64,000 nt of DNA from Candidatus Uhrbacteria bacterium RIFOXYB12_FULL_58_10 (lineage in GTDB: Bacteria; Patescibacteriota; Patescibacteriia; UBA9934; GWF2-40-263): NCBI GenBank assembly GCA_943354165.1, contig CALRBH010000001.1:16828-80827 (forward strand), in the 5' to 3' direction. How positions within the stretch are numbered: position 1 is the first letter of the stretch; each line of letters begins with the position of its first letter. Positions 1,898 to 52,770 of the stretch are shown piece by piece. The position numbers and the translations under genes are program-made. The notes under the pieces are model-generated. The model was not told where the DNA came from. It saw only the letters and a list, made by a program, of their open reading frames with translations, and ran no database searches.

Positions 1898-2443
1898 ATG
1901 TCATTCAAAGAACATTACCGCACAAAGGTGATCCCGGAGCTCATGAAAGAGTTCGGGTATAAGAACCCGCACGCCGTGCCTGCGGTCAAAATGATCACAC
2001 TCAATATCGGTCTCGGGAAAGGGCTCAAGGACGCAAAATATCTTGAAACAACCGAAAGCACTCTGCGCCGCATTACGGGTGCTCAGCCAGTAAAGACACT
2101 TTCTCGTAAATCCATCTCCAACTTCAAAATTCGTGAGGGGATGGCTGTAGGGATGAAGGTGACACTGCGTGGAACACGCATGTGGGATTTCCTCGAGAAG
2201 CTCGTAAAGATCTCGATTCCGCGCATGCAGGACTTCCGCGGTCTCTCTCCAAAGAGCTTCGATGGTCAGGGTAACTACTCGCTCGGATTCACGGAGCACA
2301 TGGCCTTCCCAGAAATCCGTACAGATGAAATCGAAGTCGTTCACGGCATGCAGCTCACGATCGTCACAAGTGCAAAGTCAACTCCGGAAGCTAGGGCTCT
2401 CCTTAAAGGCCTGGGTTTCCCCTTTACGGACGAAACTAAGTAA
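1898..2443 (+). CDS. rplE: 50S ribosomal protein L5
   Basis: 181 aa, L5 motifs ([13 protein letters not shown]). Confidence 0.95.
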
Positions 2444-2445
2444 GT

Positions 2446-2631
2446 ATGGCAACCGCAAACCAAGTTGCAAAATCCGCCCGCAAGCCAAAGTTCTCGACTC
2501 GCATCGTGAATCGTTGCTGGCGCTGTGGCCGTAAGCGCGCGTTTATGCGCCGCTTCCAGCTCTGCCGCATCTGCTTCCGCGAGCTCGCGAACCGTGGAGA
2601 AATTCCGGGCGTTACTAAGGCCAGCTGGTAA
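2446..2631 (+). CDS. rpsZ: 30S ribosomal protein S14 type Z (zinc-binding)
   Basis: 61 aa with CxxC…CxxC zinc ribbon (CWRCGRK…CRICFRE). Confidence 0.95.
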
Positions 2632-2642
2632 ACGAGATCTGT

Positions 2643-3035
2643 ATGATTAACGACCCAATTGCCGACATGCTCACCCGGATCCGGAACGCTATTGCCGCGC
2701 GCAAGAGCGAGGTTGACGTACCCGCATCCATGGTGAAAGAGGCGATCGCACAGATTCTCGTGCGTGAAGGTTTCCTTGCCCGCGTCGAACGGGTGGGCGA
2801 AATGCCGCACGCTATGCTTCATCTTACCTTTGCGTTTGATGCAAGCCAGCCAAAGATCCGCGATTTGAAGCGTATCTCCAAGTCCGGTCAACGCGTGTAC
2901 GCGAAGGCTACTGAGCTCCCACGTGTCATGTCCGGTCTCGGAATTGCTATTATTTCCACACCGAACGGGCTCATGACTAATAAGGAAGCTCGCTCGCGTC
3001 GCCTCGGGGGAGAAGTTATTTGCGAAGTGTTCTAA
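2643..3035 (+). CDS. rpsH: 30S ribosomal protein S8
   Basis: 130 aa, DPIADMLTRIRNA S8 N-terminus. Confidence 0.95.
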   Translation: MINDPIADMLTRIRNAIAARKSEVDVPASMVKEAIAQILVREGFLARVERVGEMPHAMLHLTFAFDASQPKIRDLKRISKSGQRVYAKATELPRVMSGLGIAIISTPNGLMTNKEARSRRLGGEVICEVF

Positions 3036-3045
3036 TCGACCCCAT

Positions 3046-3603
3046 ATGTCCCGCATTGGTAAACAACCTGTTATCCTTCCCGAGAAGGTAGAGGCATCCG
3101 TACAAGGCCACACTGTTACAGTGAAAGGCCCAAAAGGTTCGCTTTCCCAAGCCTTCAACGAATCGGTGACGGTCACTGTTGGTGATTTTGAGGGGAAGCC
3201 AGCGCTCAACGTAGACGTCGTGAATCACGAACTCGTTTCCGATCGAGCTCACTGGGGAACTGCTCGCGCAATCCTCGCCAATATGGTGGAAGGGGTTGTG
3301 ACAGGGTTTTCAAAAAAACTTGAGGTGAACGGGGTCGGGTATCGTGTAGCTCTCTCCGGGAATAAGCTCGTGCTCACTCTGGGATTCAGTCATGATATCG
3401 ACATGATTATTCCAGAAGGAGTAACAGCAACGGTAGAGAAAAACATCATTACCATCACAGGGATAGACAAGCAGATGGTGGGTGAACTTGCCGCCAGCAT
3501 CCGAAAAATGAAGAAGCCGGAACCCTATAAGGGCAAAGGCATCAAGTACATCGACGAGGTCGTACGCCGCAAGGCAGGTAAGGCCGCGAAGACCGGCGAA
3601 TAA
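3046..3603 (+). CDS. rplF: 50S ribosomal protein L6
   Basis: 185 aa, MSRIGKQPV… L6 N-terminus. Confidence 0.95.
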
Positions 3604-3611
3604 TCCCTCCT

Positions 3612-3965
3612 ATGGATTCCATCAAACACAAGCGAACACTCGCGGCCCGTCGCGCCAAGCGCACCCGCGCCACTATTCACGGTACCTCCGAGGTTCCTCG
3701 GCTTTCCGTTAAGCGCAGCTTGAAGCACATCTACGCCCAGCTCATCGATGACACCGTTGGAAAGACGCTTGCCGCCGCATCGAACAAGGATGTGAAGGTA
3801 GATGGAAAGAAAACGGACGTCGCGAAGGAAGTGGGAAAGATCGTTGCGGAGCGCGCAAAGGCGAAGGGGATTGAACGCGTAGTGTTTGACCGCGGATCCG
3901 CTCGCTATCACGGACGCGTCGCTGCACTTGCTGACGGCGCCCGCGAAGGGGGCCTGAAGTTCTAA
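3612..3965 (+). CDS. rplR: 50S ribosomal protein L18
   Basis: 117 aa, L18 motifs ([18 protein letters not shown]). Confidence 0.9.
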
Positions 3966-3987
3966 GGGACCAGACATTACCTATATT

Positions 3988-4614
3988 ATGGAACCCAAGA
4001 AAACAACTTCAACCGGTGGTCGCCCAGGAATGGGTGCCGGAGGTCGTCCAGGTGGCCAAGGTGGTCGCCCAGGCGGTCGTCCAGGTGGCGGTGGAGGTGG
4101 CCGTGGTGGTCGCCGCGATGACCGCGAGCCAAAAGAGTTCGAGCAGAAGATTCTCGAGCTTAACCGCGTGACCCGTGTGACCGCTGGAGGAAAGCGCATG
4201 TCCTTCCGTGCCGCGCTTGTTATTGGGGATAAGAAAGGCCGCGTAGGATTCGGTGTTGCAAAGGGTGCGGACGTCGCTCTCTCTGTGGACAAGGCTTACC
4301 GTCAGGCCAAGAAAAAGCTCGTGAAGGTTCCCATGGTGAACGGCACGATCCCTCACATGGTTTTGTATAAATTCGGTTCCGCTCAAGTCCTCATGAAGCC
4401 GGCTCCTAAGGGAACTGGGTTGAAGTGTGGTGGAGCGTTGCGTGTGGTATTTGAACTTGCCGGCGTTCCAAACGCCGTTTCCAAGGTTCTCAATTCAAAA
4501 AACAAGATTAACATTGCTCGCGCAACCATCCTTGCGATTGGCAAGCTGCGCACTCCGGCTCCACGAAAAATCGTAGAATCGAAGCCAGTCGCAGAAGCTA
4601 AAGTGGCTGAATAA
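3988..4614 (+). CDS. rpsE: 30S ribosomal protein S5 with N-terminal Gly/Arg/Pro-rich low-complexity extension
   Basis: 208 aa; S5 core (ELNRVTRVTAGGKRMSFRALVVIGD…) preceded by ~45 aa of GRPGG repeats. Confidence 0.9.
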   Translation: MEPKKTTSTGGRPGMGAGGRPGGQGGRPGGRPGGGGGGRGGRRDDREPKEFEQKILELNRVTRVTAGGKRMSFRAALVIGDKKGRVGFGVAKGADVALSVDKAYRQAKKKLVKVPMVNGTIPHMVLYKFGSAQVLMKPAPKGTGLKCGGALRVVFELAGVPNAVSKVLNSKNKINIARATILAIGKLRTPAPRKIVESKPVAEAKVAE

Positions 4615-4622
4615 CCCCACGT

Positions 4623-5060
4623 ATGTCTTTGTCTCTCCATACCATCGGCCCGGCTAAGGGCTCAAAGAAAGCTTCCAAGCGCGTTGGACGCGGTCTCGCC
4701 AAGGGCGGAACCTACTCCGGTCGTGGAAGCAAAGGTCAGCGCGCCCGCTCCGGCGGAAAGGCTGGCTTGAAGCTCCGCGGGTTGCGCAACATCATGCTTT
4801 CCATGCCAAAGTCGCGTGGGTTTAAGAGCATTGCAAACCCAATGGCTGTTGTGAATGTTGGCGATCTCGCTCTGGCATTTCCAGACGGATCTACCATCAC
4901 CCCAAAGATGATCGTGAAGCGCGGTCTCATTCGTTCCGCAGAACACGGCGTGAAGGTTCTCGGTGCTGGAGAAATCGGCATCAAACTTACTCTCAAAGAG
5001 CTTGCGGTGTCCGCATCAGCTAAGGAGAAGATTGAGAAAGCTGGCGGTACCGTTGCCTAA
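4623..5060 (+). CDS. rplO: 50S ribosomal protein L15
   Basis: 145 aa, KRVGRG…GGTYSGRGSKGQ L15 motif; follows S5 directly with no L30 gene between. Confidence 0.9.
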   Translation: MSLSLHTIGPAKGSKKASKRVGRGLAKGGTYSGRGSKGQRARSGGKAGLKLRGLRNIMLSMPKSRGFKSIANPMAVVNVGDLALAFPDGSTITPKMIVKRGLIRSAEHGVKVLGAGEIGIKLTLKELAVSASAKEKIEKAGGTVA

Positions 5061-5068
5061 CGCCCACT

Positions 5069-6337
5069 ATGTTTCCCATCCGTCGCATTTGGAAGACTCC
5101 CGAGGTTCGCAACAGCTTGCTGTTCGTCTTCGCCATGCTTGTCATCTTCCGCCTGGCGGCGCACGTAGTCGTTCCGGGCATTGATTCGACCGCGATCGCT
5201 TCGTTCTTCCAGAACAACCAGTTGTTCGGGCTCTTGAACGTGTTTTCCGGAGGCACCCTTAGTAATTTTTCTGTCGTGGCGCTTGGGGTTGCCCCGTACA
5301 TTACTGCTTCCATTATCTTCCAGCTTCTCGGCATGATCGTGCCTAAGTTTGAGGAGATGCAGAAGGAAGAGCAGGGCCGTGCCCGCATCAATCGCTGGAC
5401 GCGCTTCCTCACTGTGCCACTCGCTATTTTGCAGGCATACAGCCTTATTCTTCTGTTCCGCCAGCAAGCTACCGGCGCCCTGTTTACGGATACCAGCACC
5501 TTCACCACGATTCTTGCGATCGCAAGTCTTACGGCTGGTACTGTCTTCCTGATGTGGCTCGGTGAGCTCATCTCGGAAAAGAAAGTTGGTAACGGCGTGT
5601 CCATCATCATCTTCGCTGGGATTATCGCAGGGCTTCCGAACCTTGCTCAGCAAGCGTTCGCTCTCTACGATCCGAGCCAGCTCATCACCGCGATCCTCTT
5701 TGTCGCCGCCATCATTGCGACGATTGTCGGGATCGTGATCATGAACGAAGCACAGCGGAAGATTCCGGTGCAGTATGCTCGTCAGACGCAGGGCTCCAAG
5801 CTCGCCTCCTCGGTGGCTTCCTTCCTGCCGCTTAAGCTCAACCTTGGCGGCGTGATCCCGATCATCTTTGCGATCTCGGTGATCCTGTTCCCAACCGTGT
5901 TCGCGCAGTTCTTCGTGAACGCGCGCACGCCGTTGGTCCGCGACATCGCCACTTGGACCCTCGCCACGTTCCAGAACCAGACGGTGTACAGCATCGTCTT
6001 CTTCTCCCTCGTGTTCCTCTTCACCTACTTCTACGCGTCTGTCATTTTCCAGCCTGACCGTGTGGCAGAGAACCTCCAGAAGCAGGGCGGGTTCATCCCA
6101 GGCATTCGCCCAGGAGCCCCAACCGCGGCGTACCTCGGATGGGTCACCAACCGACTCCTCCTCGCCGGCGCGCTCTTCCTCGGGATCATCGCCATTCTCC
6201 CTTCGCTTGTTCAGCAGGCTACGGGGAACGCGAACCTCCTGGTGGGAGGTACCTCGATCCTCATTGTGGTATCGGTCGTGATCGACTCGGTAAAACAAAT
6301 CGAAGCGCAGCTGACGATGCGCGAGTACGACGCATAA
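5069..6337 (+). CDS. secY: preprotein translocase subunit SecY
   Basis: 422 aa polytopic membrane protein with SecY N-terminal signature; operon position. Confidence 0.95.
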   Translation: MFPIRRIWKTPEVRNSLLFVFAMLVIFRLAAHVVVPGIDSTAIASFFQNNQLFGLLNVFSGGTLSNFSVVALGVAPYITASIIFQLLGMIVPKFEEMQKEEQGRARINRWTRFLTVPLAILQAYSLILLFRQQATGALFTDTSTFTTILAIASLTAGTVFLMWLGELISEKKVGNGVSIIIFAGIIAGLPNLAQQAFALYDPSQLITAILFVAAIIATIVGIVIMNEAQRKIPVQYARQTQGSKLASSVASFLPLKLNLGGVIPIIFAISVILFPTVFAQFFVNARTPLVRDIATWTLATFQNQTVYSIVFFSLVFLFTYFYASVIFQPDRVAENLQKQGGFIPGIRPGAPTAAYLGWVTNRLLLAGALFLGIIAILPSLVQQATGNANLLVGGTSILIVVSVVIDSVKQIEAQLTMREYDA

Positions 6338-6405: not shown

Positions 6406-7038
6406 ATGAACAAACCGCTCAAGATCCTTTTGCTCGGCCCCCAGGGAAGTGGGAAGGGAACACAGTCTAAACTGCTTGAGGAGGAACTGCACATTCCCGC
6501 GTTCAGCATGGGTCAGCTGCTTCGCGATGAGGTGACGACGGGGAGTGATCTTGGAAAAGAAATTGATGCAGTACAGAAGGCTGGTACTCTCACGACCGAT
6601 ATCACCGCGGCCAAGGTACTGAAAGCTCGTCTGGAGAAATCAGATGCACAAAACGGATATGTCCTCGACGGGTATCCTCGCAGCTTTGATCAAGCGAAGG
6701 CATTCACGTTTGATAAGCCAACACATGTCGTCGTGATCGAAATTCCAAAAGATGAATCCATGCGTCGTCTTTCGGGCCGGCTTACCTGCTTTAAGTGCGG
6801 GAGAGTTTACAGTACCAACGATGGCCACAAGGCGGATGATGCTTGCGAATGCGGCGGAAAGATGGAAGTGCGCAAGGATGATACGAAAGAGGCGATTGAA
6901 CGTCGGCTTCAGATCTATCTAGACGAGACAGAACCGCTCATCGCCCATTATGGGTCTCAGGGATTGGTTCGTCGCATCGATGGAGTTGGTGCCGTTGAGG
7001 ACATTCACCTGCGCATCGTAAAGGCGCTTGAAGCCTAA
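6406..7038 (+). CDS. adk: adenylate kinase (Zn-binding lid type)
   Basis: Starts MNKPLKILLLGPQGSGKGTQ (P-loop); lid CFKCGRVY…CECGG; upstream part of ORF 6139..7038 is antisense overlap with the secY end. Confidence 0.9.
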   Translation: MNKPLKILLLGPQGSGKGTQSKLLEEELHIPAFSMGQLLRDEVTTGSDLGKEIDAVQKAGTLTTDITAAKVLKARLEKSDAQNGYVLDGYPRSFDQAKAFTFDKPTHVVVIEIPKDESMRRLSGRLTCFKCGRVYSTNDGHKADDACECGGKMEVRKDDTKEAIERRLQIYLDETEPLIAHYGSQGLVRRIDGVGAVEDIHLRIVKALEA

Positions 7039-7074
7039 GACCATCGACAAATACCCGGAAACGGGTATTTTGTT

Positions 7075-7323
7075 TTGGCAGCGAATGTCAGGAAACTTCA
7101 ACACAGGGTGGTTATCATGCCCATGTCAAAAGAAGATCTCGAAGCCTGGACGAAAAAAGTTCGGCAGCGTTTCGCGAGAGGAGGGATGGGTACAGCCAGC
7201 GCATCGAGGCGGATCCACGAGGTAAACGAGGAGGACAAGTGGTCATTCGATAGCGCCCTCGAGCACCTTGACCAGGAAGAGGCAGAAGCACAGACGGTGG
7301 AGGACAAAAAGAACATCAACTGA
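7075..7323 (+). CDS. small hypothetical protein (acidic C-terminus)
   Basis: 82-aa ORF between adk and a terminator; no recognisable family; the position where infA usually lies. Confidence 0.3.
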   Translation: MAANVRKLQHRVVIMPMSKEDLEAWTKKVRQRFARGGMGTASASRRIHEVNEEDKWSFDSALEHLDQEEAEAQTVEDKKNIN

Positions 7324-16980: not shown

Positions 16981-17066
16981 GCCGGGGTGGCGGAATGGTA
17001 TACGCGACGGACTCAAAATCCGTTATCCGAAAGGGTGTGAGGGTTCGAGTCCCTCCCTCGGCACCA
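16981..17066 (+). tRNA. tRNA-Leu (anticodon CAA), CCA encoded
   Basis: Cloverleaf: acceptor GCCGGGG/CCTCGGC, anticodon loop CTCAAAA, long variable arm, GGTTCGAGTCC T-arm, 3' CCA. Confidence 0.85.
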
Positions 17067-17096
17067 CTGCAGATTTCCTTGAACCTGCATTATCCT

Positions 17097-17128
17097 AACA
17101 ATGTCGACCATTTTCGGTCGACATTGTT
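17097..17128 (+). repeat. perfect 13-bp inverted repeat (aacaatgtcgacc…ggtcgacattgtt) 30 bp after tRNA-Leu
   Basis: Read directly; lies at the tRNA / GC-rich island junction. Confidence 0.6.
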
Positions 17129-17366
17129 GTTATTGGTTCGAGCGATTTTAGTTGACTCTGATCAACCTGTGGATAACCGTGCCGCATGCCACCACCGCCA
17201 GAGGAGCACACCAACGAAGCGCAGGAGTGGTCGCTGACGATGACGTTCCAGTGGCTCGAGCAGGCTGCGGAGTTTCTGTGGCGCATGGGCGCGCACAAAC
17301 CGAAGGAGGAGGACCAGATGTGCGCAGAAAAAAGAACCGACGCCACTTGGGCGTCGGAAACCGCGG

Positions 17367-17801
17367 CTATGCCACGGCAAGGTCTGCAAGGAACTGGCTC
17401 GGTGTCTTGACTGTGACCGGTAGCGTTGGCGCTGCCTGCTGGATGTGCACATCGCCGCTGACGATGACATCGGCATTCGCTGTCACGGCGCATTGCACGA
17501 CCCAGTCGTCGTCGGCGTCGCCCTGAATCCAAGTCGCCTGGGGCTCGACGGAAGGGACGAAGTCCATGAGGAGCTTGAGGTCTTCGAGGATTTCGTCGAG
17601 TACCTTCACGCCCGGCCCTCGTCTCGCGAGGAGTCGTTGGATGCTCGGCCGACCCATCACACCGATGAACTCTCCCCACAGATGGTCCGTGGTGCACGCG
17701 GTGAAGCGACGGAGCGCGAGCGCGTGCACGACGAGGCCGGGTGGCCCCGAAGGCTTGAGAAGGGCGCTGACGAGGACGTTCGAATCGAGCACCGCAATCA
17801 C
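17367..17801 (-). CDS. PIN-domain ribonuclease toxin (VapC-like)
   Basis: 144 aa; MIAVLDSNVL…D…D acidic residues of the PIN fold; preceded by a small antitoxin with 4-bp overlap. Confidence 0.7.
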   Translation of the reverse strand: MIAVLDSNVLVSALLKPSGPPGLVVHALALRRFTACTTDHLWGEFIGVMGRPSIQRLLARRGPGVKVLDEILEDLKLLMDFVPSVEPQATWIQGDADDDWVVQCAVTANADVIVSGDVHIQQAAPTLPVTVKTPSQFLADLAVA

Positions 17802-18025
17802 GCGTGACCCCGGACCTCAGCGATCGCTTCGGCGACGGTCTGCTCCACCTCCTCCTCTGAAAGCGAGGGGGCCGTGCGGGTCCACTCCTCCCAACGAGCC
17901 CGGAGTCTCTCTCGCGCCGCTTCTCGGTTGTGTGATGTTCGCAACGTATTCGCGAGCATTTCAAGGAACCTGATCTCTTCGGGGGTTAGCCCGTCAACGT
18001 TTAGTTGTTGCATCAATACCTCCAA
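17798..18025 (-). CDS. antitoxin of the VapBC-like module
   Basis: 75-aa helical protein overlapping the PIN gene start. Confidence 0.5.
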   Translation of the reverse strand: MEVLMQQLNVDGLTPEEIRFLEMLANTLRTSHNREAARERLRARWEEWTRTAPSLSEEEVEQTVAEAIAEVRGHA

Positions 18026-18158
18026 CTATTTCGTACTCCATAAATGGGGTTCTGTCAACGCCAAATGATGTCTGTTGATGTGCCATTTGTTGGCCATAGC
18101 AGTCATTGTCCTTCGCTCCACGTCCACTTCCGGGACAACTGCATCTTGCCTCGATGAG

Positions 18159-18593
18159 TCATGGCGTGCCCTCTGGCTCGGCGTCTGCGTCGACCAAGGG
18201 ACCAACGTCATATCGCTCGACATCGACGTCTGCGCCGCAGAATGCGATGAGGCGCATGCGATCGTCCTCGGTCGCGCTCGATCCGTCCACGCGCGTGACG
18301 AAGCCAGCGAAGTCGTCCACGCGACCGCCGCCACCGAAGCACAGGCCGCCAGCTTCGACGACGTCGATGAGCCGATCAGTGAACGCGTCGACGTTGGTCC
18401 CATCGCCGAAGCGGACACGTACCTCGAAGCCATATTGGGCCGTGGGAGCCATCGCCGAAGGATACCAAGCGGAGGCCGGGCTGTCCTCGTCGTCGAGAGA
18501 AAATTCTTGACTTTTGAGACAAGATCGGAATCGGTTTGCCAGATCCGGTCCGCGAGCAGTAGTATGGGGCATCCCGATCGGAGCCGTATGCAA
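18159..18593 (-). CDS. hypothetical protein (uncertain)
   Basis: 144-aa ORF with non-repetitive composition, antisense to the 5' extension of the 18075 ORF. Confidence 0.2.
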   Translation of the reverse strand: MHTAPIGMPHTTARGPDLANRFRSCLKSQEFSLDDEDSPASAWYPSAMAPTAQYGFEVRVRFGDGTNVDAFTDRLIDVVEAGGLCFGGGGRVDDFAGFVTRVDGSSATEDDRMRLIAFCGADVDVERYDVGPLVDADAEPEGTP

Positions 18594-19466
18594 CGCCCAT
18601 CAATCAGCCGCCGGCCAATCGCTGTTCTCGGATCTATCGCCGCGCTCGTCGTGGTCGTTGTGGTTGGCAAAGGCTGCGGGCCTGAACAGCAGGTTGCCGT
18701 TGATCCTGTCATCCCGCCGATGTCGCCGGTACAGCTGCCGCCCAAAATTTCATTGCTTGGCGTCGATCAAGCCGGCGGCCGCTACGAGATGCAAGTCGTT
18801 GGAGAGGATCACGACGGGCTGGTCCCCAAACGCCTGACCTACACGACGAGCGGAGGTGAGCGGCAGCTCATTGCCGATGGCGTCCTCCTCGCAGACTTCT
18901 CGCCGTCCTCGGCACTCGTGGCGTATTGGACGGCGGACTATCGGCTGACCATCGTGCGCGATCAGGAAGTGGTCGCGACCATTGCAGATGCTGGCTGGCC
19001 TCGGGTGTCCCCCACCGGAGGCAAGGTGGTCTTCGTCCGCTACCAGCAGGACGTAAGTTCCAGGCCGGGGTTTGCTGCCGAACATGCGATCGGCCTTCAG
19101 CTCCTCGATGTGAGGGACGGCAGCACCATCGCCCTCACCGATAGCTCGCAGGACTTCGCTCCATTTTGGCTTGATGACCGCTGGGTCGCTTTCGGTTCAG
19201 GGCGCACGGAGAATCCAGCGAACACCGTTGCCTCGCTTTGGCTGGTGTCAGTTGATCACTCCGTTCCGGTTCGTCTCACAAACAAGAATATCGAATCGGC
19301 TTCCGACCCGGCTTTCATCCCGATCCCATCTGAATACCCGGCAGTTTCTGAGAGCGTGGACGGGGTCGTGATTGACTACCCGTCCGACGACACGCACGTC
19401 CATCTCGTCGTCGATCTCACCAAGGGCAGTGTCACGGCCGTAAATGTTACTCGGGGCGCACAATGA
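18588..19466 (+). CDS. membrane-anchored TolB-like beta-propeller (PD40 repeat) protein
   Basis: Start taken at MQRPSISRRPIAVLGSIAALVVVV (TM anchor); repeated …W(T/L)xD… propeller blades; the longer 18075 start is doubtful. Confidence 0.55.
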   Translation: MQRPSISRRPIAVLGSIAALVVVVVVGKGCGPEQQVAVDPVIPPMSPVQLPPKISLLGVDQAGGRYEMQVVGEDHDGLVPKRLTYTTSGGERQLIADGVLLADFSPSSALVAYWTADYRLTIVRDQEVVATIADAGWPRVSPTGGKVVFVRYQQDVSSRPGFAAEHAIGLQLLDVRDGSTIALTDSSQDFAPFWLDDRWVAFGSGRTENPANTVASLWLVSVDHSVPVRLTNKNIESASDPAFIPIPSEYPAVSESVDGVVIDYPSDDTHVHLVVDLTKGSVTAVNVTRGAQ

Positions 19467-20629
19467 ACTACCGCAGCGTTCTTTTCGTCCTCATCATCGC
19501 GACCGCTTTGCAAGGTAGTGTTGCCAATGCCGCGCCGAAATTCCGCCGACCTTTCGGGCAGAGTGTGACCGTCCTCAACTTCATGGATCACGATTCGAGT
19601 GCAAGCTGCAAAACGTATGACTGCAGAACAGGTTGTGCAACCGGTGTTGGAAAGAGCTATGGCGACCATGGTGGGACAGACTTCGACTTGGCTGTTGATT
19701 CAGCGCTCTACGCCGGAGCGAACGGTGTGTTCGAGAGCCGGTATGACGGCTGTTCGAACACCGGCACATTGATCAGCACGTGTGGCGGTGGATTCGGCAA
19801 TAATGTGCGCATGAAACATCCGGACATTTATTCGATCTATGGTCACATGAAAAACGGAACGCCAATCAATGTAGCGAATGGCACAATTATCAACTGCAGC
19901 CAGGAAATCGGTCGCAGCGCGAGTTCAGGAAGGTCGAACTGGCCGCATGTCCACTTCGAGCTCCGTACGGCCCCGACAAGCGCAACGACCTCGATCGACC
20001 CGTACTCGGGAACATGCAGCCAGTCGACCAGCTACTGGGTCTCGGTCACCGGTACGGCGCCGGCGACGACTTGTGCGAGTCCGCCCGCCGAGACCTGCAA
20101 TGGAGTCGACGACAATCAAAACACCATCATCGACGATCTCGAAAGCTGTTGGACGCCGGTCTACCGTTTTTGGGACACCTCGATGGCGTCGACGGCCCGC
20201 TCGCGCTGCTATGGAACGTCGTCAAGCCCTCCGTCGCTGTGCAGCGGATACGCACTTGAGTTCTCCGGGCCGGCCTTCTATGTGTACAGGAATTCTGGCA
20301 TACCCGGGACCGTCGAGTTGATTGCTTTCGATAAGAACCAGGACCATATCCTTACGCGTGGAGACGAGTCCGGCGATATCGCTGCGCTGACACAAGCTGG
20401 ATACACCCGCCGCGGGACGCTTGGCTACATCTGGAGCAGCACAAGTACTGCTCCAACAGGCACATTCTTCAAGCCGTCGGGTGCAAACACCTCCAGTGTG
20501 CGGAACCTGCGCCGCTTCTCGAAGAACCCACCAGGGATCCATCTCTTCCCGAACAACCCGGCTGAGACTGCACCGTCGGGCTGGTCCAACGAAGGCGTGC
20601 GCGGCTTTGTGTTTTCGTCCCGCTGGTGA
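19463..20629 (+). CDS. secreted M23-family (LytM-like) peptidoglycan metalloendopeptidase with C-terminal Cys-containing module
   Basis: Signal peptide; GDHGGTDFD (HxxxD) and HVHFE (HxH) zinc motifs; C-terminal CNGVDDNQNTIIDDLESCWTPVYRFWDTSMAS shared with the amidase. Confidence 0.8.
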   Translation: MNYRSVLFVLIIATALQGSVANAAPKFRRPFGQSVTVLNFMDHDSSASCKTYDCRTGCATGVGKSYGDHGGTDFDLAVDSALYAGANGVFESRYDGCSNTGTLISTCGGGFGNNVRMKHPDIYSIYGHMKNGTPINVANGTIINCSQEIGRSASSGRSNWPHVHFELRTAPTSATTSIDPYSGTCSQSTSYWVSVTGTAPATTCASPPAETCNGVDDNQNTIIDDLESCWTPVYRFWDTSMASTARSRCYGTSSSPPSLCSGYALEFSGPAFYVYRNSGIPGTVELIAFDKNQDHILTRGDESGDIAALTQAGYTRRGTLGYIWSSTSTAPTGTFFKPSGANTSSVRNLRRFSKNPPGIHLFPNNPAETAPSGWSNEGVRGFVFSSRW

Positions 20630-20642
20630 CCTGCGAAATTTG

Positions 20643-20661
20643 GGTGCCGCCAGGGTGCCGC
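20643..20661 (+). repeat. 19-bp direct repeat copy 1 (ggtgccgccagggtgccgc)
   Basis: Identical copy at 20872-20890; flanks the tRNA-like fragment and the integrase 3' end. Confidence 0.7.
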
Positions 20662-20778
20662 AAGCCCGCGGCGTTCGGCGGTTTCCAACGGAACAGGACG
20701 GGATGGAGCGGACCACGAGATCGTGAACATCGTCGAGGCTGTGCGGGCCAAAGTCGCTCCCCGTTCAGGGTTTTGTGC

Positions 20779-20805
20779 ACAACTCGCAACAGGTTCGATT
20801 CCCGC
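20779..20805 (+). other. tRNA 3'-end-like fragment (T-arm GGTTCGATTCC + acceptor strand + CCA), putative att-site remnant
   Basis: caggttcgattcccgccgcctccacca; no complete cloverleaf upstream. Confidence 0.45.
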
Positions 20806-20826
20806 CGCCTCCACCAGAAATGTGAC

Positions 20827-21918
20827 CTAGAAACGGGAGCTTACGGCTCCCGTTTCGCTTTTCTCGCCCTTGGTGCCGCCAGGGTGCCGCTCCGCCGATT
20901 TTCCAAACGGGCTCGGCTCGTCGAGCAGGACCACCGCCTCCCGTCGCGCGTCCGGCGAGAGGTGGGCGTAGCGCATGGTCATCTCGACGGTCGAGTGGCC
21001 CATGAGTTCCTGCACCGCACGGATCGGCACGCCACGCATCACGAGGTGGCTCGCGAACGTGTGCCGCAGAACGTGCCACCCGATGCGCCGGAGCCCTGCC
21101 CGTTTGCAGGTGCTCCACAGCGGGTGCTTGCAGTCCCCGTCGGTGAGCGGCTTGCCGTCCTCGCGGCAGAAGACCCGGTCCCCTCGCAGGTGCCGGTGCT
21201 TCTTGAGCGCCTCGACGACGGACTGGGCGAGAGGAACCTCTCGGCTCTTCCCGCTCTTGGGGGTTCCCTCGTGTCCCCGCCAGATGCTCCGGCGGACCAT
21301 GAGCCTCCCCGCAACCAGATCGACGTCGTCCCACTTGAGCCCGAGCAGCTCGCCTTGACGAAGGCCGGTCTTGAGCGCGACGACGATCATCGTCATCCAG
21401 ACATCCTTCGCCGCCGCGACGAGCCGGTCGGCTTCGGGGAAGTCGAGGAAGTCGAACTTGCAGGGAGGCGGCCGGAGCCAGTGGAACCTGGGCACCGTCG
21501 TGATCTCCCCGACGTCGCCGGCGGTGAGGCTCGGTTCGTCGCGACGCGGAGCACGGCTGAAGGCGACGTCGTGGGCAGGGTTCGACGGGAGGTGCTTCTT
21601 GGCGATGAGGAAGCCGAAGAAGCTGCGTAGGACCGTGAGCTTCCGGTTCCGCGTGGTGGGCGCGAGCGTTGAGTTCCCGTTGCCCAGGTATTCGACGAGC
21701 AGCTCACGCGTGACGGCTTCGGCGTCGACGATCTGGCGGGCCGCGGTAAACACGCCGAGCAGGCGAAGTTCGGCGCGATAGCTGACGACCGTGGCCGGCG
21801 AGAAACGCCGTTCCTCGTCGACGTGGGTCACAAAGAGGCGTGCTGCCTCGTCGATGCGCATGCGCTGTCTCCGGCGGCGGAGTGCCGCCGGCAGGGAGCC
21901 TGCCCAAGTTCGCCACAT
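20827..21918 (-). CDS. tyrosine-type site-specific integrase/recombinase
   Basis: 363 aa; catalytic region LRHTFASHLVMRGVPIRAVQELMGHSTVEMTMRYAHL; the C-terminal tail overlaps the direct repeat and a hairpin. Confidence 0.9.
   Translation of the reverse strand: MWRTWAGSLPAALRRRRQRMRIDEAARLFVTHVDEERRFSPATVVSYRAELRLLGVFTAARQIVDAEAVTRELLVEYLGNGNSTLAPTTRNRKLTVLRSFFGFLIAKKHLPSNPAHDVAFSRAPRRDEPSLTAGDVGEITTVPRFHWLRPPPCKFDFLDFPEADRLVAAAKDVWMTMIVVALKTGLRQGELLGLKWDDVDLVAGRLMVRRSIWRGHEGTPKSGKSREVPLAQSVVEALKKHRHLRGDRVFCREDGKPLTDGDCKHPLWSTCKRAGLRRIGWHVLRHTFASHLVMRGVPIRAVQELMGHSTVEMTMRYAHLSPDARREAVVLLDEPSPFGKSAERHPGGTKGEKSETGAVSSRF
20872..20890 (+). repeat. 19-bp direct repeat copy 2
   Basis: Identical to 20643-20661; lies within the integrase 3' coding end. 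Confidence 0.7.
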
Positions 21919-22107
21919 AGATGCAACTGCGCCGTCCGGATCTCCATCGACGTGGCTTGCGGGGCTCGACGGAGCGTCGCTTTTATTGTATGGTGATGCT
22001 AAACAGTCGCGGCACGTTCGGTTTCATGCCACCCACATGTCCCGCGGCCACGCGACGAACCGGCCGCGCTAACCTCGCCCGACGGATTTTCCCCGGGGCA
22101 ACAACCT

Positions 22108-22896
22108 ATGCCGACCCTAAACGACACAACACCAAGAATGGCCATTGGCGTAGCCGCCGCGTGCATCGCGCTGCTCGGTGCGGGGTGCCCGGTCAAACCC
22201 GAGCCGCCGCGGTCTGTTCCAGCGGCGAGCAGTAAAGTGCCCTCGATCATTGAAACAATCGTATTGCCGCAGCCAGCTTCAAGCGAGCCATCACCACCTT
22301 CTCTTATTGATCCCCGGTTTTCGGACGATGGAACCTCGGTGTTGTTTACAAATGCGCGGGGTCTAAGCACCATTCGAATCGCGCTACCGGAAGCGATCCA
22401 TGCCTTCCCAGTGACCACACAATCGACCGGACTTTTTCTCGAGCGGAATGGCTCGATACTTGCGCGTTTTCCAAACGAGAGCGATCGGGAGGTTGTTGTT
22501 GCCGTCGGAGAGCAATATTGGGGCTCGCAGTTTTCTCCGAATGGAGACTGGATCCTCTTTCAGGAAGACAGAGTAGATGGGGCCCACATCTGGGTCATCA
22601 ACAAAGACGGCGCTGAACGCCGCGATCTCGGTCTCGGGCAGCAGCCTACATGGCTTCACAATTCCCAGGGTGTTCTCTTCGTAATTGCCGAGATGGGCCA
22701 GGACATAGAAAACCAGCATAATATCGTGGCGAGCGACCTGTGGTTTGCCTCGGTCGACGGAACTCACCGAGTTTCCTTGACCACGACCGCGGACCAAGTC
22801 GAACTCAATCCGATCGTCGCCAACGATGGCAAACACGTCGTTTCAATCGACGGCTCGACTGGTCAGGTCTTGCTCTCAACTCTTGGCGAGAGGTAG
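22108..22896 (+). CDS. lipoprotein with TolB-like beta-propeller repeats
   Basis: Lipobox LLGAGC; PD40-like repeats (FSPNGDWILF, WFASVDGTH). Confidence 0.6.
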   Translation: MPTLNDTTPRMAIGVAAACIALLGAGCPVKPEPPRSVPAASSKVPSIIETIVLPQPASSEPSPPSLIDPRFSDDGTSVLFTNARGLSTIRIALPEAIHAFPVTTQSTGLFLERNGSILARFPNESDREVVVAVGEQYWGSQFSPNGDWILFQEDRVDGAHIWVINKDGAERRDLGLGQQPTWLHNSQGVLFVIAEMGQDIENQHNIVASDLWFASVDGTHRVSLTTTADQVELNPIVANDGKHVVSIDGSTGQVLLSTLGER

Positions 22897-22901
22897 CCCT
22901 G

Positions 22902-24845
22902 ATGCAGCAAGCTCGACGATTGAATCATGCGATGGTTGCCGCAGTTCTCCTGACCGCGACGACTGCATCTTACGCACAGACATCACCCTATAAGAAAATC
23001 TTCTTGAACCCAAGTGACCAGACATGGAACCTGGTTACGGGCGGAGGGACTGAAGCGGAATACGCTCGATTGATCGCAGCACGAGTGCAGACCCACCTTA
23101 TTTCGGCGGGACACAGCGTTAAGCTGCACTATTCGCGTCCTGATGCTCCGAAGCGTGCGAGAGAGTGGTCAGCAGATTATTTCGTCTCGATCCACTCAAA
23201 CGCAGGACGATCACACGGCATTGAAACCCTCTTTGGGGTCACGCCAACGAGCGAAGAATTTGCTCTGACCATCAAGACAGCGCTATTGGATGGTTATGGA
23301 AATCAGGAAGGATTTCCTGACCGAAGAGTCATAAATGGGGTTAACATCGCGGATGTCTTGGCATTTACAACCATGCCGGCGGTGCTCGCTGAAACAATGT
23401 TCCACGATTGCACAACGGTGCATACGTCAACAAGTGAGTCTGCGTTTTTGCGAAGTGAAGATGGGCAAAAGCGTGTTGCCCTAGCGTTGGCTCACGGCAT
23501 TTGTTCAGAGTTCGGCGAAGACTGCGGGTGCGCCATTTCAGCCGGTGAAGGATCGAGCGACGCTGAGGTTTTTGCTGACGCATTCGAGCGTTGGGGCGGA
23601 CGACTTGGCTGCCCAGCGGAGGCGGGCGGAGGACCGAACGTCCACGACGTATTCGGAGTATCCTTGCAGGATTTCTATCAACCTTCTGCGGAATGGCATT
23701 TTGATGGGAGTGACGGGAGAACAGCGCTCGCCTATGGAGGCTCGGGTGATAGCGCGTCCGCGTCACTCCTTCGCAGTGGATTCTGGGCCGCATACAAGTG
23801 TCTGGTCGCTCCAAGCGGTGGAGGTATGGGTGGGGCGCATTATTTAGGAGCTCCGCTTAGCGAGGAGTATCGACGCGGACAAGGTGGCGAACGCAGTGAC
23901 CCTCTGGATCATGGGAATCTGCTGTGTCCGAACGGGCATACATGTCAAGATTTCGAGCACGGTCACATGTGGTTCGGTAATGAGACCCCATCACCATCCG
24001 TCCATATTCATGTAACAGGTGTAACGGAGCAGGATGGTGACAGATCGACGTGCGTCCAGCCCCCTCCTGGGATCAGGCAGGATTGTCTCGACCCCGGCCT
24101 CAATCTACGGTTCTGCGACAACCCCCCTTTTGGGCCGGTCTGTGGTGATGAGAGTTGCGACGCTGACAGCGAGAGCTATTCGTCCTGCGCTGCCGACTGC
24201 TTCTACACCTCCGCGCTCCCATCACAGACACCCAACGGCGTCTCCCGGATGTGCCCTGGCGAGACCACGTTCTTCACGCTCGAATACGAGAACACAGGGA
24301 CGCTTCCGTGGATCGACACAGACGACGGCGTTTCTGGCCCTGCATACGTCGAGCTGCGGTCAGTGAACCCAAGCGGCAGCGACGAGGTCGACTCCCCCCT
24401 GTTCCCGGGTTCACCCTGGATCAACCCGCAGCGCGTCGGCCCGCCGCTCGATTCTAATGTCGAGCCCGGCGCCTTCGCGACGTTCAACGTACCGGTGCTC
24501 GTTCCGGCCGATGCTGTTCCAGGCGAAGAGATTGCCGCGTATTTCAGGCCGTACTCTGCCGAGATGGATCAGTCCGGCGACGGCTTCTTCGAAGACTGGG
24601 GCGAGGCCCACTTCACTGTTCAGGTACGCGATTGCACGCCGGCCGGGACGACCTGCGCCGCCCTGCCTGCTGAGACTTGCAACGGCATCGACGACAACCA
24701 GAACACCGTGATCGACGATCTTGAGAGTTGTTGGGTTCCCGTCTATCGGTTTTGGGACACGTCAATGGCCTCAAACATTACGGTGGGCATGTCGATGGAG
24801 GATTCCTTGAACGTTCTCGCCTGTATCGCATTGAGGAAGCCGTAA
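22902..24845 (+). CDS. N-acetylmuramoyl-L-alanine amidase (Amidase_3) with long C-terminal extension ending in the CNG..DDNQNT module
   Basis: Signal peptide; YFVSIHSNAG…(H/E) Zn ligands of Amidase_3; C-terminal AETCNGIDDNQNTVIDDLESCWVPVYRFWDTSMAS. Confidence 0.75.
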   Translation: MQQARRLNHAMVAAVLLTATTASYAQTSPYKKIFLNPSDQTWNLVTGGGTEAEYARLIAARVQTHLISAGHSVKLHYSRPDAPKRAREWSADYFVSIHSNAGRSHGIETLFGVTPTSEEFALTIKTALLDGYGNQEGFPDRRVINGVNIADVLAFTTMPAVLAETMFHDCTTVHTSTSESAFLRSEDGQKRVALALAHGICSEFGEDCGCAISAGEGSSDAEVFADAFERWGGRLGCPAEAGGGPNVHDVFGVSLQDFYQPSAEWHFDGSDGRTALAYGGSGDSASASLLRSGFWAAYKCLVAPSGGGMGGAHYLGAPLSEEYRRGQGGERSDPLDHGNLLCPNGHTCQDFEHGHMWFGNETPSPSVHIHVTGVTEQDGDRSTCVQPPPGIRQDCLDPGLNLRFCDNPPFGPVCGDESCDADSESYSSCAADCFYTSALPSQTPNGVSRMCPGETTFFTLEYENTGTLPWIDTDDGVSGPAYVELRSVNPSGSDEVDSPLFPGSPWINPQRVGPPLDSNVEPGAFATFNVPVLVPADAVPGEEIAAYFRPYSAEMDQSGDGFFEDWGEAHFTVQVRDCTPAGTTCAALPAETCNGIDDNQNTVIDDLESCWVPVYRFWDTSMASNITVGMSMEDSLNVLACIALRKP

Positions 24846-24997
24846 AGGTGTTGTCTATGGCGCTTAAGGGAAATTCGACGATGACCTTGCCTGAAGCAAA
24901 GAAGTTTCTTGTCGAAAGTATCTAAAATAGCGAGGTTTCCTTCCGATAACCGCCCTTGCCAATTTAGACATATTGGGCTAGGATTCCGGGGGTTCAT

Positions 24998-25074
24998 GGC
25001 TGGGTAGCTCAGTTGGTTAGAGCACGGGACTCATAAGCCTGAGGTCGCGAGTTCGAATCTCGCCCCAGCTACCA
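24998..25074 (+). tRNA. elongator tRNA-Met (anticodon CAU; Ile2/lysidine type not excluded), CCA encoded
   Basis: Near-identical architecture to E. coli elongator tRNA-Met (GGCT…TAGCTCAGTTGGTTAGAGCA…CTCATAA…GGTTCGAATC…ACCA); one A·G mismatch in the anticodon stem. Confidence 0.8.
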
Positions 25075-25180
25075 GAATCGTTTATCCTCTTCTCGAATCC
25101 TCGCAGAGAGGATGCCGGAGGAGGGCTAAGCGATTAGCCTCAGTATCGCGGGGTAGAGCAGCCAGGCAGCTCGCCAGGCT

Positions 25181-25870
25181 CGAGTGCTCCGATCATTTCT
25201 TTCCGAACATGGATACCAAACTCAAGGGAGATATTGCTGAACAGGCATCTGTTTTGCAGGCCCTCCGAAGAGGTTGGGGTGTTCTTCGCCCGTGTGGGGA
25301 CCGTCATCCGTATGACATGGTCTTCGAGATACGGGGTGTGTTCGTCCGAGTGCAAGTGAAGCACGCATGGCTTGATAAGAAGTCTAGCAACTACGTGATC
25401 GATAATCGTCGGACAAAGACGAATCGTCTGGTCATGAAGCGCCAGCCATATCAAGCAAGCGACTTTGACTTCGCGCTCGCGTACGTCCCAGAAGGAGAAA
25501 ACTTTTATGTGTTCCCACAGAATACATTCTCCAGTTTCGGAAGCGTGATCCACATGGTGGAACATGATAAGCGCCAACGTAAACCGCGATCTGCGGAATA
25601 CAGAAACGCTTGGGAATTGATCGAGCGATGGGCCGCGCATGGGGAAACTCATGCGGCAACCTCTGTCAAATTCGGGGAAGCCTAACGGTGGTAATCCCGA
25701 GCCAAGCCCTGAGACGCCGCAAGGCGGTCGAAGGGAAGGTGTAGAGACTTAACGGCAGACACCCTCGCGCCCCTCCTACGCTCCTCGGAGCTTCGGTGGG
25801 CGGTGCAGGGTGAAGAGAAAGTCCAGACTACGAATCCCGCAAGGGAGCGGCGAAAGCCGAAGTAGGTAAG
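25181..25870 (+). ncRNA. group I-like self-splicing intron in the tRNA-fMet anticodon loop
   Basis: 5' exon ends in U, intron ends in G (omega-G); 3' core contains GAAGGTGTAGAGACTTAACGGCAGACACC and GAGCCAAGC, resembling the P7 region of anticodon-loop tRNA introns as recalled from memory. Confidence 0.6.
25209..25685 (+). CDS. intron-encoded putative homing endonuclease (possible PD-(D/E)xK fold)
   Basis: 158-aa ORF wholly inside the intron; D…E.K-like acidic/lysine motif (PYDMVFE…VQVK); context analogous to cyanobacterial tRNA-fMet intron endonucleases. Confidence 0.5.
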   Translation: MDTKLKGDIAEQASVLQALRRGWGVLRPCGDRHPYDMVFEIRGVFVRVQVKHAWLDKKSSNYVIDNRRTKTNRLVMKRQPYQASDFDFALAYVPEGENFYVFPQNTFSSFGSVIHMVEHDKRQRKPRSAEYRNAWELIERWAAHGETHAATSVKFGEA

Positions 25871-26015
25871 CATAACCTGGAGGTCGTGGGTTCAAATCCC
25901 GCCCCCGCTACCAAAATATCCTCTGAGAAATCAGGGGATATTTTTGTTGAAAATGAGCCACGTTTTCCCGCTTCCGTTTTCCCCCCACCTCGATTATACT
26001 ATCCGCGTACTCACT

Positions 26016-45604: not shown

Positions 45605-45610
45605 AACGTT

Positions 45611-52768: not shown

Positions 52769-52770
52769 GT

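Follow-up and report, generated by a model that had tools for sequence, protein, structure and literature searches.

Foreign DNA, probably a captured piece of a mobile element, between the tRNA-Leu and tRNA-Met genes of a Candidatus Uhrbacteria chromosome

The 64,000 nucleotides (nt) of contig CALRBH010000001.1 from Candidatus Uhrbacteria bacterium RIFOXYB12_FULL_58_10 that were analyzed here (referred to below as the window) are core chromosome, encoding SecY, AsnS, AspS, TopA, Der, HisS and FtsA. The TopA sequence has 67-68% identity to proteins of Candidatus Uhrbacteria and Patescibacteria, bearing out an earlier guess, in a preliminary description of this DNA, that the organism belongs to the candidate phyla radiation (CPR). 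Between the host genes for tRNA-Leu(CAA) and tRNA-Met(CAT) lies a segment of 7.7-7.9 kb that carries a tyrosine integrase gene, a PIN-type toxin gene and genes for two exported peptidoglycan hydrolases. This segment is foreign DNA, and in all likelihood short of certainty it is a recently acquired, captured piece of a mobile element, set into a conserved tRNA-Leu(CAA)/tRNA-Met/tRNA-fMet cluster by some means other than its own integrase.

Both tRNA-Leu and the gene set named in the preliminary description were recovered at the positions given there with ARAGORN, Rfam, Pfam, NCBIfam and PHROGs (Table 1). The integrase assignment is secure from its Pfam and PHROG matches, and the R, HxxR and Y motifs of a tyrosine integrase can be read in its sequence. 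Two beta-rich exported proteins, which that description had called TolB-like and which are labeled TolB1 and TolB2 here, each precede a hydrolase gene. The preliminary description had overlooked the YggL-like gene, whose position on the opposite strand means that the 463-amino-acid open reading frame (ORF) taken for TolB1 is over-extended; TolB1 starts at about 18564.

Table 1. Features of the inserted segment and its borders (positions in the window).
Feature	Position	Strand	Evidence and remarks
tRNA-Leu(CAA)	16981-17066	+	Host gene, left border; ARAGORN and Rfam
Hairpin, 13-14 bp stem, T-rich tail	17096-17129	+	30 nt past tRNA-Leu end; part of insert
PIN_3 (VapC-like) toxin	17367-17801	-	Pfam 2e-15; TIGR00305 6.5e-9, above cut-off
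Putative antitoxin, 75 amino acids	17798-18025	-	ORF geometry; upstream of PIN toxin, 4-nt overlap
YggL-like (DUF469) gene	18159-18593, likely start ATG at 18452	-	Pfam YggL_50S_bp 3.6e-14, 53.9 bits vs cut-off 27
TolB1, ~300 amino acids, exported, N-terminally anchored, beta-rich, PD40-like	18564-19466	+	PD40 5e-4, below cut-off
Secreted M23 metallopeptidase with C-terminal DUF5648-like module	19463-20629	+	Pfam 2e-11, 44 bits vs cut-off 28.7
First tandem pair of octamer GGTGCCGC, 11-nt period	20643-20661	+	Left of core
ssrA (tmRNA) 3'-end fragment, 25 nt, GGTTCGATTCCCGCCGCCTCCACCA	20792-20816	+	Att core of the integrase; right end of shared block
Hairpin, 12-bp stem, T-rich tail	20830-20856	+	Just after core, inside integrase 3' end
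Tyrosine integrase, 344 amino acids (363 from alternative start 21918)	20827-21861	-	Pfam Phage_integrase and SAM-like domains 1e-36; PHROG 1 2e-58
Second tandem pair of GGTGCCGC	20872-20890	+	Right of core, inside integrase coding region
TolB2 lipoprotein, beta-rich, PD40-like	22138-22896	+	Lipobox LLGAGC; PD40 3e-4; partial TIGR02800 3e-6
Secreted Amidase_3 protein, 647 amino acids, four modules	22902-24845 (alternative start 22740)	+	Pfam 3e-13; PHROG endolysin 5e-16; CwlV (1jwq) 6e-4
Module common to amidase and M23	24636-24772 vs 20054-20190	+	76% nucleotide identity, 46/75 amino acids
Promoter-like TTGCCA-17 nt-TAGGAT before tRNA-Met	24955-24997	+	Host DNA
tRNA-Met(CAT)	24998-25074	+	Host gene, right border; ARAGORN and Rfam

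The orthologous site was found in Candidatus Uhrbacteria RIFCSPHIGHO2_01_FULL_63_20 (contigs L125 and L126), a relative reached through TopA homologues. A search of genome contigs with the flanking glycosyltransferase returned only paralogues of ~30% identity, without synteny or tRNA-Leu. The window and the relative have in common a neighbourhood of ScpA/B, DacC, a GT4 glycosyltransferase (48% identity), a YdjM-like protein (83%), ParA, ParB, RelA and TopA (67%). In the relative, a tRNA-Leu(CAA) gene similar to that of the window, a tRNA-Met gene 48 nt further on and, after another 20 nt, a tRNA-fMet gene form one tight cluster, and none of the integrase, M23, amidase or PIN genes is present at this site. 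A spacer of 48 nt thus corresponds to 7.9 kb in the window, and since the same genes flank an empty tRNA spacer in the relative, the 7.9-kb segment is an insertion, starting exactly at the tRNA-Leu 3' end. The comparison with relatives proposed in the preliminary description thus turned up an empty site. At the other border, the heptamer CTTGCCA at 24955, part of which is the -35-like element of the tRNA-Met promoter-like site, stands directly 3' of tRNA-Leu in the relative, so that the inserted DNA is at most 17067-24954.

Nearly half of the segment also exists elsewhere. Positions 17059-20816 of the window recur, without gaps, at 1960-5717 of a contig assembled from another sample (ENA contig k141_1612078, here L036), with 7 mismatches in 3758 nt (99.81% identity); the M23 protein encoded there is 99% identical. 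Six of the seven substitutions are nonsynonymous (three in the PIN toxin gene, two in the M23 gene and one in a 74-amino-acid ORF), and the seventh is a synonymous change in the PIN gene. The shared block begins at CGGCACCA and ends exactly after GGTTCGATTCCCGCCGCCTCCACCA (...CTCCACCA). To its left, L036 carries a large serine recombinase gene whose stop codon lies 67 nt from the junction, and to its right a hairpin terminator and then a PAS-domain gene. These two flanks, with G+C (GC) contents of 0.636 and 0.629, gave no match to the 64-kb window, and the junction of recombinase gene and block was independently assembled in Logan ERR5863101 (L040). A second copy in an unrelated context of ~63% GC, together with the empty site, marks the segment as recently acquired and as foreign, in support of the island of the preliminary description. 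The octamer CGGCACCA (17059-17066) is the final 8 nt of tRNA-Leu and the sole identity with the left flank of the L036 copy, and represents the crossover or the microhomology at the tRNA-Leu 3' end.

Two further observations concern these contigs. The gene callers used on L036 and L040 also overlooked the YggL-like gene and called a 462-amino-acid protein in its place. On L036, a direct repeat of ~110 nt, seen by eye at 5806-5916 and 7026-7135, surrounds the PAS-domain gene and a small ORF; it may represent a further mobile unit or an error of assembly.

On its right, the shared block ends in a 25-mer that resembles the T-arm and the 3' strand of the acceptor in an RNA akin to tRNA-Ala. Its Rfam match to transfer-messenger RNA (tmRNA) is weak, the T stem has no 5' strand upstream of it, and neither ARAGORN nor Rfam found a tmRNA gene in the window, where the 25-mer is unique. 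The integrase gene is convergent with it and has its stop 10 nt beyond it. The closest relative of the integrase (P0013, 54% identity over 86%) has the same geometry: its gene stops 1 nt short of a genuine tmRNA gene (contig L123; Rfam 200.7 bits, tag ANNEMALAA), the two lying 3' end to 3' end, and positions 20792-20813 of the window match the final 22 nt of this tmRNA exactly. On the strength of this identity to a tmRNA abutting the closest integrase relative, the 25-mer is identified as the attachment (att) core of an ssrA-targeting tyrosine integrase. Among the other integrase relatives, the one on L054 is followed by a convergent tRNA gene, tRNA-Leu(TAA), and the one on L124 (8001-9152 of a 3.28-Mb contig) by a 22-nt ssrA-like fragment only, with no tmRNA gene within 8 kb. 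Ahead of the L124 integrase gene stand an excisionase-like gene (HTH_17) and a toxin-antitoxin pair of DUF433/PIN-like type, a layout that resembles the core without tmRNA seen in the window.

The order of parts around the core differs between the two copies. The window has cargo tail, core and integrase, which is the arrangement of an attP or of a junction between tandem elements; L036 has cargo tail, core, a native-looking terminator and unrelated DNA, which is that of an attR. A hairpin just after the core in the window could be an element-supplied terminator for a reconstituted ssrA. Tandem pairs of the octamer GGTGCCGC stand on both sides of the core and form an exact 19-nt direct repeat; of the seven octamer copies in the window, four are no more than 250 nt from the core. 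These pairs may be arm-type sites, and no arm-binding domain is recognisable in the integrase. A degenerate copy of the integrase 3' end in the tail of the block was considered and rejected, as the similarity stops at the exact 19-mer.

The right end of the insert falls within a gene. The amidase and the M23 protein have a module in common, which M23 prolongs, as a DUF5648-like domain, by ~145 residues; the amidase is homologous only up to 24772, after which come 23 unrelated codons and the stop. Judged by this end of homology, the amidase gene is 3'-truncated at the right junction, which is accordingly not an att site. Four modules of the amidase (amino acids 14-235, 210-430, 433-580 and 571-625) occur separately in other proteins, no full-length relative was present among 1.84 billion representatives, and a search of metagenome contigs gave one short N-terminal match only. 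The insert is taken to run from 17067 to about 24772, and at most to 24954.

Base composition sets the segment apart only in part. The preliminary description had noted GC-richer DNA after tRNA-Leu, and the island does have a GC content of 0.595 against 0.553 for the remaining window, an excess of about 3 standard deviations for windows of 7.9 kb (windows of this size outside the island: mean 0.554, standard deviation 0.013, maximum 0.583). The rise is patchy, being carried by the integrase gene (0.676, with a third-codon-position GC, GC3, of 0.85), the PIN gene (0.634) and TolB1 (0.608), whereas the M23, TolB2 and amidase genes are host-like at 0.56-0.57. Oligonucleotide signatures, which that description had suggested plotting alongside GC, confirm the shift less well, the di- and tetranucleotide signatures of the island being only ~1 standard deviation off the host.

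Since the core of the resident integrase is intact and internal, this enzyme did not make the outer junctions. The source would be an ssrA-targeting integrative element, or a tandem pair of such elements, and the piece would span an attP-type junction, from the PIN/antitoxin, YggL-like, PD40-like and M23 genes across the ssrA core to the convergent integrase and on to the PD40-like lipoprotein and Amidase_3 genes. Its left junction would have formed through the 8-nt identity of CGGCACCA with the tRNA-Leu 3' end, and its right junction would have cut the amidase gene. Such a segment has no usable outer att sites and is probably immobile now. Two routes are conceivable, neither of which we would put at an even chance, and we rate the first slightly above the second. 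In route (a), a linear fragment would have been taken in by a single illegitimate, microhomology-mediated capture, for example after DNA uptake, the fragment having its origin in a circular element or in a tandem of two ssrA-located islands; this accounts for an arbitrary, gene-truncating right end in a single event. In route (b), the large serine recombinase would have integrated its element at an attP just downstream of its own gene, with a later deletion of the recombinase gene, attR and the 3' end of the amidase gene. It fits this second, somewhat less favored route that the insert supplies CGGCACCA and, 30 nt on, a hairpin, as tRNA-targeting elements do; the insert-borne hairpin could serve as a terminator for tRNA-Leu. 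The putative attP and the reconstructed attB resemble each other at only ~3 standard deviations above shuffles, mostly through CGGCACCAC.

Several points weigh against a captured mobile-element piece or against one of its routes. The empty site was found in a single and distant relative, in which the tRNA cluster is inverted with respect to its flanks. The microhomology route is drawn from one junction only, and 180 nt (24773-24954) lie between the end of the amidase-M23 homology and the host DNA. For the recombinase route, blastn and tblastx searches of the window gave no large serine recombinase gene, and dyad symmetry was absent from the putative recombinase att site (seed 6, L036 1940-1980). 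The hydrolase genes have host-like oligonucleotide signatures. Structure models were too poor for fold searches, with a predicted local distance difference test score (pLDDT) of 46 for M23 (11-sequence alignment) and of 45 for TolB2 (single sequence), and the PD40-like partner proteins of the window show no significant sequence similarity to those of the contig binned as Polyangiaceae that is discussed below. Finally, neither junction with host DNA is spanned by an independent contig (L001, from Logan, extends over 19063-24397 only), and as L001 lies wholly inside the island, an assembly error is formally possible.

Four other explanations were weighed against the capture of a mobile-element piece. 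The segment might be a degraded prophage or phage satellite, in which the hydrolases would be endolysins and not secreted effectors or autolysins, and PHROG endolysin matches of the amidase (5e-16) and M23 (3e-7), the assignment of the integrase to PHROG 1 and the presence of integrase relatives in IMG/VR proviruses all point that way. We consider it improbable: genes for structural proteins, packaging, holin or replication are absent from the segment, both hydrolases bear Sec signal peptides and follow an exported partner gene, and searches of IMG/VR with M23 and the L036 recombinase gave no relatives.

Very unlikely, in our view, is a metagenome assembly chimera, with DNA of another organism or an episome misjoined between two CPR tRNA genes. 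Two separate false joins would be required, the left at an identity of 8 nt, far under any assembler k-mer, and the right at no repeat. The tRNA-Leu gene and the tRNA-Met promoter are moreover intact and orthologous to those of the relative, and both flanks are syntenic. These features outweigh the internal position of the sole independent identical contig and the island GC and protein taxonomic affinities, which are unlike the host and would suit a misjoined sequence.

The classical tRNA-Leu island of the preliminary description, with the whole 7.9 kb inserted by the resident tyrosine integrase and bounded by attL and attR, is contradicted by the present results and receives very little credence from us. 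It would explain the start of the insert at the last tRNA-Leu base and the intact-looking integrase, relatives of which can adjoin tRNA genes, as on L054. The repeat of the tRNA-Leu 3' end that had been expected near 24900-25000 does not exist, and neither a comparison of the last 18 nt (up to 3 mismatches) nor a repeat search gave one elsewhere in the window; a partial match of 17068-17084 to 24796-24812 (14/17) was rejected as an att repeat, not being above shuffled controls. The integrase gene stands 3.7 kb from the tRNA, flanked by an ssrA-type core of its own in the geometry seen at the intact tmRNA gene of its relative, and at the right end there is a truncated gene.

A native, vertically inherited region with a domesticated Xer-like recombinase is scarcely credible, since the host-like GC and GC3 of the hydrolase genes and the sub-threshold XerC and XerD matches of the integrase (XerC 131 bits vs a cut-off of 335) are set against an empty site in the relative, a 99.8% identical copy in an unrelated context and an ssrA att core beside the integrase.

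The preliminary description had proposed that the segment encodes exported peptidoglycan hydrolases, and this was upheld by the Sec signal peptides of the M23 and Amidase_3 proteins. They are encoded in two gene pairs, TolB1-M23, in which the TolB1 stop overlaps the M23 start (ATGA), and TolB2-amidase, with a gap of 6 nt, which would be operons with coupled translation or close spacing. Judging from the predicted products, each pair would join a membrane-anchored, beta-rich exported protein to a Sec-exported peptidoglycan hydrolase, and the two hydrolases have a common C-terminal DUF5648-like module; that of M23 is 57% identical to P0002, with a DUF5648 score of 1.3e-3. As a secreted endopeptidase, M23 was confirmed by its Pfam match, by an N-terminal signal peptide with cleavage between ANA and A, and by the HxxxD and HxH motifs, which are kept in an alignment of 11 relatives (H69, D73, H128, H162 and H164), and the enzyme looks catalytically intact.

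The amidase likewise matches its earlier description as an Amidase_3 protein with a long extension, the additional modules being those mentioned above. Its Pfam score is 50.6 bits against a cut-off of 27, and its SIHSNA motif and the region of the catalytic Glu align with CwlV. The match begins at profile position 18 of 174 and leaves the first zinc-ligand motif outside, where FLNPSDQ is read by eye in place of the usual DPGHGG. With its C-terminus cut, the enzyme is damaged and its activity uncertain.

The account of two TolB-like propeller proteins, one of them a lipoprotein, holds for the lipobox of TolB2 and less well for the TolB assignment. Each protein has a single PD40 repeat only, near the Pfam threshold; the TolB equivalog model TIGR02800 gives TolB2 26 bits against a cut-off of 343 and has no match to TolB1. 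The single-sequence model of TolB2 is all-beta, at low confidence. For the module described as VapBC-like, the toxin half stands, with a PIN_3 protein and an overlapping small ORF upstream, and the antitoxin half is less clear, as the 75-amino-acid product matches no family in Pfam or NCBIfam; such a PIN toxin-antitoxin pair would stabilise the segment.

Roles for the hydrolases are suggested by the families to which they belong. The role in host lysis or host feeding put forward in the preliminary description is plausible, and the partner protein of each pair might confer immunity, inhibit the enzyme or serve as a scaffold. Other possible roles are those of an autolysin or of wall remodelling, and the genes may also be plain passenger DNA.

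The order of a PD40-like partner gene followed by an M23 gene recurs in two other contigs, where a 310-amino-acid Tricorn_N/PD40-like gene overlaps the M23 gene by 4 nt. One of these contigs is binned as Polyangiaceae, and its M23 protein is 41% identical to that of the window. All named relatives of the integrase (50-70% identity) are from Myxococcota or 'Deltaproteobacteria'. The identities of M23 and integrase to their named relatives are 41-70% only, and an inter-phylum transfer from Myxococcota was dropped as the main claim, the 63% GC of the L036 flanks being that of the Uhrbacteria relative (0.62-0.65). Given this agreement, the second host might also belong to the CPR. A bolder and unlikely proposal is a recent transfer between an Uhrbacteria-like cell and its host or prey, by uptake of naked DNA, with each hydrolase and its partner acting as a weapon/immunity pair against the host wall. 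The partner would perhaps be a myxobacterium, as suggested by the affinities of the integrase and M23 and by the recurring PD40-like/M23 gene order. If true, the island sequence would offer a lead to the host of a CPR lineage that has not been cultured.

Other features were observed around the insert and in its neighbourhood. Between the window (16981-25913) and the relative (L126 16202-16509), the tRNA-Leu/tRNA-Met/tRNA-fMet cluster is inverted relative to its flanks, which are the YdjM-like and GT4 genes on one side and ParA on the other. The relative carries a DUF559 gene, a 197-amino-acid ORF and an Sm_multidrug_ex gene that are all missing from the window. In the window, the initiator-type tRNA-Met(CAT) gene (25147-25913) is interrupted by a group I intron of 690 nt (25182-25871; Rfam Intron_gpI, 56.7 bits at 25581-25849) that separates anticodon positions 34 and 35 and within which lies an ORF for a PD-(D/E)XK endonuclease (25209-25685, PDDEXK_5 3e-47). 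Its exons (25147-25181 and 25872-25913) join to a 77-nt tRNA that is accepted by ARAGORN, and the relative has an intronless allele with identical exon sequence (L126 16433-16509). Further along, positions 43751-58032 encode a 617-amino-acid protein with an Mbov_0395-type pilin-like conjugal-transfer domain (7.8e-10), followed by giant ORFs of 2385 and 1753 amino acids. This is probably a CPR type IV secretion or pilus-like locus, and T4SS_pilin-like genes are also present in the matching neighbourhood of the relative.

As a kind of object, a decayed fragment of an integrative element beside a tRNA gene is ordinary, and what it adds here is a clean case of recent transfer in an uncultured CPR lineage. 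For CPR/Patescibacteria, few records exist of mobile elements and of recent gene flow, and hosts have yet to be named for most lineages, Uhrbacteria included; literature searches turned up neither this locus nor the sample accessions. With three clean features, namely an empty site, a 99.8% identical copy elsewhere and an att core, the locus offers a well-defined recent capture of foreign DNA in a CPR chromosome. The shared block can serve as a sequence tag for tracing the exchange partner in the source metagenomes, and the cargo offers a candidate that can be tested for a role in attacking or remodelling the cell wall where cells meet.

Tyrosine-integrase islands that target the 3' end of ssrA include CP4-57 of E. 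coli and VPI-1 of Vibrio. The segment described here resembles them in having a tyrosine integrase gene that converges on the final ~25 nt of ssrA at a distance of a few nt, a hairpin after the core and toxin-antitoxin cargo. Unlike in those islands, there is no tmRNA gene, a single core lies in the middle of the insert, the location is a tRNA-Leu/tRNA-Met spacer and the outer ends are not att sites. With tRNA-associated islands in general it has in common an exact start at a tRNA 3' end, an integrase, absence from a relative and a moderate GC shift, but it has no flanking repeat, its integrase is not tRNA-proximal and its distal end is a truncated gene. The toxin module is like VapBC modules in its PIN_3/TIGR00305 toxin and the small upstream gene overlapping by 4 nt, and unlike them in an antitoxin without a family match. 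Among the hydrolases, M23 is similar to lysostaphin and LasA in keeping the HxxxD and HxH motifs, in its Sec signal peptide and in an extra C-terminal module, and the amidase to CwlV and AmiC in its Sec signal peptide and in a core that aligns with CwlV, including the SIHSNA and Glu regions. The amidase departs from other Amidase_3 systems in the first zinc-ligand motif, which falls outside the Pfam match, and in its truncated C-terminus. Both hydrolases differ from known M23 and Amidase_3 systems in that their common C-terminal module is DUF5648-like, and not of the SH3b, LysM or SPOR type, and in the exported PD40-like partner that precedes each of them.

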